The notes below the pieces were generated by a model. It did no database searches, was not told where the DNA came from, and was given only the letters and a program-made list of their open reading frames with translations. This document shows positions 1 to 553 of a stretch of DNA of 64,000 bases, piece by piece. Source of the stretch: Bacteroidales bacterium (GTDB lineage Bacteria > Bacteroidota > Bacteroidia > Bacteroidales > UBA932); assembly GCA_016287875.1 (NCBI GenBank), contig JAEEXQ010000005.1, positions 5,909-69,908 of the forward strand, written 5' to 3'. The position numbers were made by a program, and so were the translations under genes. Each line of letters starts with the position of its first letter. Position 1 is the first letter of the stretch.

Positions 1-132
1 CCCCTTCTGAGGAGGGTATCCCCCCTGAAACAGTCTCGCTTCGCTCGACCCCTCCCAGCGGAGCTGGGCCCCTCCCTCTTACATTGCCGAGGGTGGCATG
101 TGTTTCAGGGGGGATACCCTCCTCAGAAGGGG
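1..132. repeat. Palindromic MITE/REP-like element with perfect 31-bp terminal inverted repeats, inside carA
   Basis: Bases 1-31 (CCCCTTCTGAGGAGGGTATCCCCCCTGAAAC) are the exact reverse complement of 102-132. Internal hairpins at 54-59/63-68 and 85-88/95-98. The left end coincides with the window edge, so the true extent is unknown. Confidence 0.85.
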
Positions 133-553
133 TTATGCTGGCTGAAAGAGTGCCGTTGTCGCGCAGAAGCTGGGTGAGATGGCGGGTGTCGATGCCGCAG
201 ATTGCAGGAATCTTCTCTTCGCGAAGCCACTGCCCCAGACTCTTCACGGCATCGTAATGACTGAACTTCCCGCTATAATCGGAAATAACCAGACCCCTGA
301 CGTGAATCTTCTCGGACTCGAAACCCAGGCACACCCCCCACTCGTCCTTGGTCATCGCGGGAATACCGTAATTGCCCACGATAGGATAGCTGACGCACAG
401 TATCTGCCCCTCGTACGAAGGGTCCGTCAGGCTCTCGGGATAACCCACCATCGCGGTCGAGAACACAAGCTCGCCGCTGCAGGGCCCGTCGTAGCCGAAA
501 CTCATACCCTCCAGGCAGAGTCCGTTTTCCAATTTAAGTACCGCCTTATTCAT
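1..553 (-). CDS. carA: Carbamoyl-phosphate synthase small subunit, N-terminal part (runs off the window edge; absent from the ORF track)
   Basis: Manual translation from ATG at 553 gives MNKAVLKLENGLCLEGMSFGY...GELVFSTAMVGYPESLTDPSYEGQIL...YPIVGNYG...GIDTRHLTQLLRDNG, the CarA N-terminal signature. No stop before base 1. The start overlaps the argH stop. Confidence 0.93.
   Translation of the reverse strand, partial: MNKAVLKLENGLCLEGMSFGYDGPCSGELVFSTAMVGYPESLTDPSYEGQILCVSYPIVGNYGIPAMTKDEWGVCLGFESEKIHVRGLVISDYSGKFSHYDAVKSLGQWLREEKIPAICGIDTRHLTQLLRDNGTLSASITPSEEGIPPETHATLGNVRGRGPAPLGGVERSETVSGGIPSSEG

Follow-up and report, generated by a model that had tools for sequence, protein, structure and literature searches.

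Palindromic repeats that settle in frame within housekeeping genes have been regarded as peculiar to Rickettsia. The Rickettsia palindromic elements (RPEs) are palindromes of about 150 bp with many in-frame insertions in unrelated metabolic genes (Ogata et al. 2000, as summarised in PMC10969869). Elsewhere, some MITEs (ERIC, Correia and cyanobacterial MITEs) occasionally fuse in frame with ORFs (PMC3184786, PMC10969869; PMC3733652). Two further systems bear on repeats of this kind. Recoding intragenic invertons have been described in Bacteroides by Chanin, West et al., with both orientations mixed within clonal cultures (bioRxiv 10.1101/2023.03.11.532203), and, under a published model of replication template switching, a single event can bring about several compensatory changes, an extended stem and a wholly inverted loop (PMC8794818).

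Here we analyse a 64,000-nt stretch of a Bacteroidales genome (the window), which opens with a palindrome translated as part of carA. We consider it likely that this element is a copy of a genus-specific, non-autonomous, GC-rich palindromic family that is RPE-like and has been reshaped by template switching; full-text literature searches found no published description of the family. It works like an RPE and is not one of the RPEs, a distinction drawn by lineage rather than by direct comparison with the RPE-1 to RPE-10 consensi. In the scheme that we favour, a copy would persist, and presumably be translated, when it has inserted in frame into a loop or linker where a housekeeping protein tolerates it, and the settled palindrome would act as a hot spot for replication template switching. 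Such switching could lengthen the stem by adding, on one side, an inverted copy of about 10 nt of the host flank on the other; keep the arms complementary by letting one overwrite the other; invert the core, giving two unrelated peptides at the same locus; and swap or delete internal modules.

A palindrome in the interdomain linker of CarA

The first 132 nt of the window form a perfect palindrome in the carA linker, in which 68 nt are enclosed by two 32-nt arms (positions 1-32 and 101-132) that are 100% complementary (Table 1). The earlier note on this DNA had described a perfect terminal inverted repeat of 31 bp; the perfection stands, and the length needs to be corrected by one base. Its reading of the 132 nt as 44 codons in the carA frame without a stop is reproduced: the minus-strand frame is open and gives the quoted peptide TPSEEGIPPETHATLGNVRGRGPAPLGGVERSETVSGGIPSSEG, which makes up 44 residues of CarA (approximately 141-184). 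The outermost paired base is window base 1 (G000:C105:5909), and the next bases outward (C and T) are unpaired. Since the palindrome ends exactly at this base, the window edge hides only the remainder of carA and nothing of the element, so that of the two things thought to lie beyond the edge, the rest of the gene is there and the left boundary of the element is not. Past the edge, carA stays open through its glutaminase domain, giving a complete 383-aa protein, and is followed by carB.

Table 1. Coordinates of the palindromic element, its host gene and the Y1_Tnp genes. Positions are those of the window unless a contig is given; a dot marks features without strand.
Feature	Position	Strand	Basis
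carA 5' part (N-terminal CPSase small-chain domain)	133..553	-	ORF list, Pfam, PDB CarA/CPS1 alignments; start codon 551-553
Rest of carA (GATase domain)	G000:C105:5310-5908, left of window	-	ORF list, Pfam
Whole palindromic element	1..132	-	Perfect inverted repeat; open carA frame; covariance-model match C105:5907-6039, 141 bits; absent from orthologues
Outer left arm, copy-specific, outside conserved unit	1..11	.	Pairs with 122-132; nhmmer family profile spans only window 12-118
Inner left arm, conserved; family consensus ~GGGTAYNCCCYCTGAAAC	12..32	.	Copy alignments; compensatory changes with right arm
68-nt conserved core, segment seen inverted between strains	33..100	.	Copy alignments; P0003 core comparison
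Hairpin a GTCTCGCTTCGCTCGAC	33-49	.	Compensatory variants
Hairpin b CCCAGCGGAGCTGGG	54-68	.	Compensatory variants
Hairpin c CATTGCCGAGGGTGGCATG	82-100	.	Its loop GAGGG complementary to CCCTC at 75-79
Inner right arm, conserved	101..121	.	Complement of 12-32
Outer right arm, copy-specific	122..132	.	Pairs with 1-11
Y1_Tnp genes, G000	C89:63731-64630, C77:51457-52383, C77:13043-14077, C44:2815-3810

The insert was proposed to lie in the linker between the N-terminal and glutaminase domains of CarA, and two lines of evidence place it there. Pfam assigns residues 6-140 to the CPSase_sm_chain domain (PF00988) and residues 207-381 to the GATase domain (PF00117), and human CPS1 (5dot) aligns with CarA in two blocks, 5-140 and 185-382; thus, the insert occupies the gap between the two domains. 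In an AlphaFold2 model built from a shallow alignment (mean pLDDT 63.5), residues 146-184 have the lowest pLDDT of the protein (25-29) and no secondary structure; the model is mediocre and is used here only to say that the insert has no confident structure. Judged from this model, the 44 residues probably form a disordered interdomain loop.

CarA orthologues from the same genus and from the same order do not have the insert and carry a linker of 17-19 aa at this site. The expected indel among orthologues is therefore real, but on balance it lengthens CarA by about 27 aa rather than 44, because the stem partly re-used or copied the host linker. Peptides at the junctions and in the core of the insert include, for example, GPAPLGGVER and SETVSGGIPSSEGGNLAAVVSCK. 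Among 22 close carA alleles from public assemblies, which are 77-96% identical elsewhere in the gene, 21 carry an insert at this position, with wildly different peptides. That the palindrome is a chimera created during library preparation or assembly, or a product of binning, is so improbable that it can be set aside. Palindromes can arise as artefacts, and one copy in this genome coincides with a contig break (end of C73, start of C105); however, the carA locus is filled in independent assemblies from ENA, NCBI, JGI and Logan, and there are hundreds of copies in about 80 species from different studies, with frames preserved.

The sole insert-free close allele, P0018 (L043), has an AT-rich 29-nt filler in the linker, ATGGCAATCCTGTATCCAACAATCCAAGC (NGNPVSNNPS), that resembles neither the element nor the ancestral linker. 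It was considered as an ancestral empty site and rejected: P0018 is nested within the insert-bearing clade of the CarA tree, and the loss of its insert is thus secondary. The CarA protein of G008 (L038), a member of the same genus that is 46% identical to the CarA studied here, does not have the element and has a separate insertion of about 17 aa, AEPAQDVENINGSKAATTE, just before the first GATase strand. At the other end of the gene, the argH stop overlaps the carA start by 8 nt (window 546-553; argH spans 546-1844, and both genes are on the minus strand). This overlap means that carA and carB are probably co-transcribed with the upstream arg genes, which would put a hairpin of about -95 kcal/mol in the middle of a polycistronic mRNA.

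A multi-copy family of one genus

The genome that carries the window, G000, is a 2.18-Mb MAG that is 97% complete. It contains about 25 copies of the element, 19 of them found by iterated nhmmer searches and about six more divergent ones by a covariance model; the latter form a sister subfamily with the same architecture. Because the element is multi-copy in this genome, the palindrome in carA is far beyond chance. All 25 copies lie within long ORFs (25/25, compared with 85% of random windows), a count that exceeds the prediction for a purely deleterious or neutral repeat and tells against one. The host genes include carA, folP, a dsbD-like gene, rnr, the linker of an E2 acyltransferase, rluD, fmt and the linker of dnaX, as well as gltD, the BCCP linker, atpG, uvrA (two copies), an addB-like nuclease gene, a comEA-like gene and a GH95 gene. 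Copies are found in both orientations relative to transcription. The main set of 19 copies uses essentially one frame per orientation, with a few copies changing frame inside the core, and this gives two recurrent peptides, ..PPETHATLGNVRG(RGPAPL/GTVSEAN)GGVERSETV.. and ..TVSLRSTPPSGAGPLPLTLPRVA... The idea that the element is designed to be free of stops was rejected: the average of 3.29 open frames out of six is only slightly above that of dinucleotide shuffles (2.91) or of random genomic windows (3.02). Its translatability is thus attributed to GC-richness and to selection among insertions.

The sister-subfamily copies (C20:4579-4712, C77:27688-27822, C36:11580-11710, C77:12527-12662, C64:13662-13838 and C8:37614-37758) have a long outer stem, three TTCG-type hairpins and a ..CCGCGGGTG.. 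centre; their core sequence is different, and all six are in frame within long ORFs. In the GH95 gene, a single copy of the element holds both the end of contig C73 (32047-32174) and the start of contig C105 (1-129, immediately left of the window). The arms of these two versions are identical and their internal modules differ, one having the standard hairpin b and the other a variant of about 50 nt (..DTPKIGRFSGTPLLASRK..), and the contig break was probably caused by polymorphism of the element within the sample. The family is a likely source of contig breaks, and of apparent hypervariable linkers, in protein catalogues derived from MAGs.

Beyond this genome, 79 of the 100 species sampled from the genus match the covariance model, often at 10-30 places per species, and the 120 other genera of the order that were sampled gave no match. 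The host genus is probably Ca. Cryptobacteroides. A motif scan of named GTDB genomes returned almost only Bacteroidales MAGs from the rumen or gut of herbivores (goat, yak, buffalo, sheep, deer and horse), Ca. Cryptobacteroides among them; the few scattered matches in other phyla are consistent with chance. Elsewhere in the genus, long ORFs contain 35 of 68 copies, against an 80% share for random windows, and the copies make use of all six frames. On the one hand, then, the colonisation of coding sequence that the earlier note inferred is complete in G000; on the other hand, it fails genus-wide, and we rejected the notion that the family is coding-specific. Depletion in genes across the genus fits a selfish repeat, of which G000 is an extreme case, and we infer that the element is selfish or neutral DNA rather than a device of the host.

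With these results, the earlier reading of the locus holds, namely a MITE/REP-like family that colonises coding sequence and creates new low-complexity loops, with RPEs as the precedent: carA is open, the element is multi-copy and in frame, and orthologues lack the insert. The two systems have in common several related families of palindromes, each repeat being about 100-150 bp long (here, 132 nt with 32-nt arms and about 25 copies per genome), repeated in-frame insertion into unrelated housekeeping genes at fold-compatible sites with a family-typical peptide, and the lack of a known transposase or a clear target duplication. Rickettsia, however, are obligate intracellular alphaproteobacteria, whereas the present family belongs to one genus of free-living rumen Bacteroidales. 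Colonisation of this type thus extends to abundant free-living bacteria, to dozens of their species and to many essential genes, and the family offers a natural experiment, many times repeated, in which proteins tolerate new loops and gain them.

A DNA-level palindrome with a conserved unit

Alignment of copies defines a conserved unit of about 107 nt, in which inner inverted repeats of about 20 nt surround three small hairpins; a copy-specific stem of about 10 nt brackets it. Across copies, the core (about 70 nt) retains the invariant sequence GCCGAGGGTGGC. Hairpins a and b vary in a compensatory manner (GTCCCG/CGGGAC versus GTCTCG/CGAGAC; CCCAGC/GCTGGG, CCGT/ACGG and CCGC/GCGG). In 17 copies, 91.6% of helix cells are paired, in comparison with 77% after column shuffles and 39-56% with slid partners. 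In the outer stem, 18 of 19 pairs are changed on both sides, and none of 500 shuffles reached the observed covariation. One-sided, G.U-type states are rare (6 cells, versus 85 double changes), and G.U-type mismatches are about as numerous as A.C-type ones, which leaves no strand bias. The balance of these mismatches, the rarity of one-sided states and the presence of copies in both orientations point to a palindrome at the level of DNA rather than to an RNA read from one strand.

This bears on the suggestion that the element is a structured RNA (cis-regulatory, ribozyme or intron-like) that acts in the mRNA or is removed from it, the open frame being incidental. The strong covariation of the outer stem and of hairpins a and b, the very stable predicted fold (about -95 kcal/mol) and a possible CCCTC/GAGGG pseudoknot in the invariant core are all what such an RNA might show. 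Yet neither strand is favoured by the mismatches, the element lies in either direction with respect to transcription and flips in place, and 25 of 25 copies in G000 are free of stops in the host frame though a copy has only about three of its six frames open, which is what translation of the element would predict. Searches of Rfam returned only generic long-hairpin miRNA models (25-39 bits, compared with gathering scores of 66-200). Taken together, we regard an RNA function as highly improbable.

The same anatomy can be compared with that of other small dispersed repeats. It resembles MITEs, REPs and the BIME-RAYT systems in being small, non-autonomous, hairpin-forming and dispersed, in genomes that contain Y1/HUH genes. 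MITEs share their terminal inverted repeats between copies; here, the inner ~20 nt are conserved with compensatory drift, whereas the outermost ~10 nt are copy-specific (30% identity). REPs are 20-40 bp long and extragenic, whereas the present unit measures about 107-132 nt, has three internal hairpins and is intragenic in G000.

The outer stem as a copy of host sequence at three loci

Over 33 full copies drawn from many species, the 9-11 nt that flank the conserved unit on its two sides show 70-80% complementarity within a copy and 30% identity from one copy to the next; beyond about 12 nt, complementarity is no higher than background. Three loci (uvrA twice, and folP) show where these bases originate, as each has an outer stem that is an inverted copy of one host flank; the assignment comes from outgroup alleles and one conserved motif at these loci, and carA itself is not among them.

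At the first uvrA site, the insert is 108 nt long. Host sequence GTGGCAGCAGG is retained on the left, as in the insert-free allele P0141, and its reverse complement, ACCTGCTGYC, has been added on the right: P0141 reads GTGGCAGCAGGC and then, at the site, CTAGTC, and G000 reads GTGGCAGCAGGT, the unit from ATACCCTCAC through the core to GTGAGGGTAT, then ACCTGCTGTC and AAGGTG. At the second uvrA site, where the insert is 132 nt long, P0123 reads CTTAAAA followed by CTGCCTCCGGCTTT, the host sequence is the one on the right, and the left side in G000 is AAAGCCGGAGACAG, a reverse complement at 13 of 14 positions; AAA microhomology is present at the junction. In folP, the perfect 30-nt right arm CCCCCGTTTTCTAT extends into codons for FSIDT, a stretch that falls on the conserved ISVDT motif when aligned with solved DHPS structures.

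Two other explanations of these junctions were tried. A target that was palindromic before insertion was rejected, as no palindrome is present at the site in insert-free uvrA alleles. P0122 uvrA was rejected as an ancestral empty site, as a deletion between GTAT microrepeats has removed all of the element but the duplicated arm. The resolved junctions (carA, both uvrA sites and folP) show no direct repeat; in particular, the TTA at positions 133-135, once suggested as part of a target duplication, has no matching TTA on the other side of the element. In this the family differs from MITEs, with an inverted copy of one flank in place of a direct target-site duplication. The template-switching process that we favour for the core accounts for the inverted flank copy as well. 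The sharp drop in complementarity about 10-12 nt outside the unit could mean instead that the inverted duplication was made by an enzyme at insertion and not gradually.

Among UvrA homologues P0122-P0146, other strains have different recurrent in-frame peptides (PETGAFAGEPSSGETVKDAGAG, CAGVTRCLAEKMLANERTGLRPQDSTDEEAAIP and SSASRPPRNDS) in these two loops, at G000 residues ~250 and ~612, and some of the peptides are found at both sites. These sequences suggest that there may be more, unrelated families of in-frame repeats in the genus.

Inversion of the core between strains

In the carA alleles P0005 and P0009, the 75-nt cores are exact reverse complements of each other between identical 18-nt arms, while the flanks are identical at 441/451 and 618/626 positions. 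Likewise, the G000 core agrees with that of P0003 (65/68) only after reverse-complementing one of the two. The P0003 insert peptide corresponds to the translation of frame 3 on the plus strand of the window, which is an open frame; thus, a flip of the G000 copy would keep carA intact. Near-identical strains therefore have, at the same locus, one of two unrelated predicted peptides, ETHATLGNVRGRGPAPLGGVERSET or ETVSLRSTPPSGAGPLPLTLPRVAC. With the insert left out of the CarA tree, its well-supported branches require a minimum of 5-6 changes of orientation, and orientation is scattered as in shuffled labels.

The arms change along with the core. P0001 (A) and P0002 (B) have CarA proteins that are identical outside the insert and DNA flanks that match at 368/372 and 594/597 positions. 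The core of P0002 is inverted with respect to that of P0001, and its left arm is the exact complement of its right arm, whereas P0001 keeps a left arm of the G000 type. Among carA alleles, G000 is thus palindromic for the left-type arm, P0002 and P0003 are palindromic for the right-type arm, and P0001 is a hybrid. The flip from P0005 to P0009 was accompanied by correction of two arm mismatches. The direction of change in each pair of carA alleles is inferred by parsimony, and P0001 could have arisen by recombination between alleles instead. Had the arms recombined reciprocally, their outer differences would have stayed in place, whereas inverted copying of the core together with one arm would remove them; flips in which one arm is overwritten by the other thus favour replication template switching over an invertase.

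Can the flips nevertheless be programmed? An intragenic inverton, with a site-specific recombinase acting on the conserved inner arms and reversibly flipping the core within a population, would produce two loop isoforms and phase variation by recoding. Both core orientations do occur at the same locus among near-identical alleles, with the repeated flips counted above, both are free of stops in the host frame, the inner arms are conserved across copies, and there is the Bacteroides precedent (bioRxiv 10.1101/2023.03.11.532203), in which, as in our case, a stretch between inverted repeats lies entirely within a Bacteroidales gene, occurs in either orientation with the frame open, and encodes two protein variants. 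However, overwriting of an arm is not a product of reciprocal recombination. The hosts are cytoplasmic housekeeping enzymes to which loop switching offers no obvious gain, other species have many intergenic copies, and a survey of G000 for serine recombinases and invertases (PF00239) gave no match. The described invertons occupy single loci and are presumed to be invertase-driven, whereas the present family is dispersed and mobile, has a stem that is partly host-derived and flips in a way that looks replicative. The family is probably not a member of the recoding intragenic invertons, and we think it quite improbable that a dedicated recombinase drives its flips. If flipping within populations is true, it would link mobile repeats to these newly described intragenic invertons.

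Template switching, as described for hairpin mutations by Monttinen and Loytynoja 2022 (PMC8794818), explains the perfect stems, the multi-base compensation, the stem extension and the inverted loops seen here. It was described, as a mutational process that we group with quasi-palindrome correction, for rRNA and microRNA stems over a few to tens of bp, whereas here it would act on a mobile palindrome of 130 nt within coding sequence and recode a protein. The family would thus be a concrete case of replication template switching rewriting coding sequence.

Alignments and allele comparisons directly support membership in the family, the in-frame reading frames, host-derived outer arms at three loci, exact core inversions and overwriting of arms with flips. 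The last three add behaviours to those of a palindromic insertion: the palindrome appears to grow from host codons, its arms to be kept perfect by overwriting, and its centre to flip until orientation is random on a tree of near-identical alleles. A host-copied inverted outer stem, repeated core flips and genus-wide use of six frames also set the family apart from RPEs, for which we know of no description of any of the three.

Candidate routes of mobilisation

A transposase with ends matching the element, which the earlier note proposed to look for, was not found in G000, nor was a parent IS with the same ends of the kind known for MITEs. Half-elements split by a gene, as an autonomous parent would leave, are likewise absent from G000, a 97%-complete MAG of a type in which repeats are often unassembled. 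Searches of G000 for IS630 DDE_3, TnpB/Cas12f-like and serine recombinase (PF00239) proteins gave no matches. The genome does contain four Y1_Tnp genes (PF01797; Table 1) that encode proteins of about 300 aa with HUH and Y..NNP motifs, and two of them lie 0.6-1.5 kb from copies of the element. A related Y1 family is present in 50 of 100 genus genomes. Each Y1 gene in G000 is bracketed by simple hairpins of its own that are unrelated in sequence to the element; the C89 gene, for example, has TGCTTGCTA(A/C)GTCCC..GGGAC.CAGCAAGCA on both sides. From their sequences, these genes look like IS200/RAYT-like units with a long C-terminal extension. They were considered as RAYT-style neighbours of the element and rejected on account of these hairpins.

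Across 99 genomes of the genus, the Y1 protein (the family of about 310 aa) was found in 3 of 20 genomes with no copies of the element (15%), 27 of 55 with one to nine copies (49%) and 20 of 24 with ten or more (83%), an association that ignores phylogeny. Four high-copy genomes have no Y1 protein, among them a 98%-complete assembly in eight contigs.

The element could accordingly be an intragenic relative of REP/RAYT systems, copied through single-stranded hairpins by the Y1 (HUH) transposase, with the inverted flank as a by-product of insertion. This reading concerns the mobilisation step and is compatible with the explanation that we prefer; we regard it as possible, if doubtful. The four PF01797 genes, two of them near copies, the more frequent presence of the protein in genomes with more copies and the fairly defined length of the copy-specific stem (about 10 nt) speak for it. 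The unrelated hairpins around the Y1 genes, which unlike in REP/BIME-RAYT systems leave statistical co-occurrence as the only tie, the high-copy genomes that have no Y1 protein and the phylogeny-blind association speak against it. To our knowledge, moreover, inverted flank duplication is no part of IS200/IS605 or RAYT chemistry. The Y1 protein as mobiliser, which co-varies weakly with copy number, is thus a lead and not a finding. A transposase-free route, in which insertion is templated from another copy at microhomology, is equally open.

A bolder version would be a transposable recoding switch, in which a mobile palindrome and its inverted flank copy are made by the Y1/HUH enzyme of about 310 aa and fast core flips, by enzyme or at the replication fork, mix isoforms within single-strain populations. 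We think this unlikely, somewhat more so than Y1-driven copying by itself. If true, it would be the first intragenic REP/RAYT-like system and would supply two isoforms of CarA, UvrA, DnaX, FolP and other hosts, so that the element would be a general and portable generator of loop heterogeneity and not inert selfish DNA.

About 1 kb downstream of one Y1 gene, at C77:15100-15191 (L189 5600-5691), there is a further GC-rich palindrome (CCGCCGCGGCCAGGGGTGCTGTGCGC..) with 26-nt arms that are 92% complementary; its sequence is unrelated to the element.
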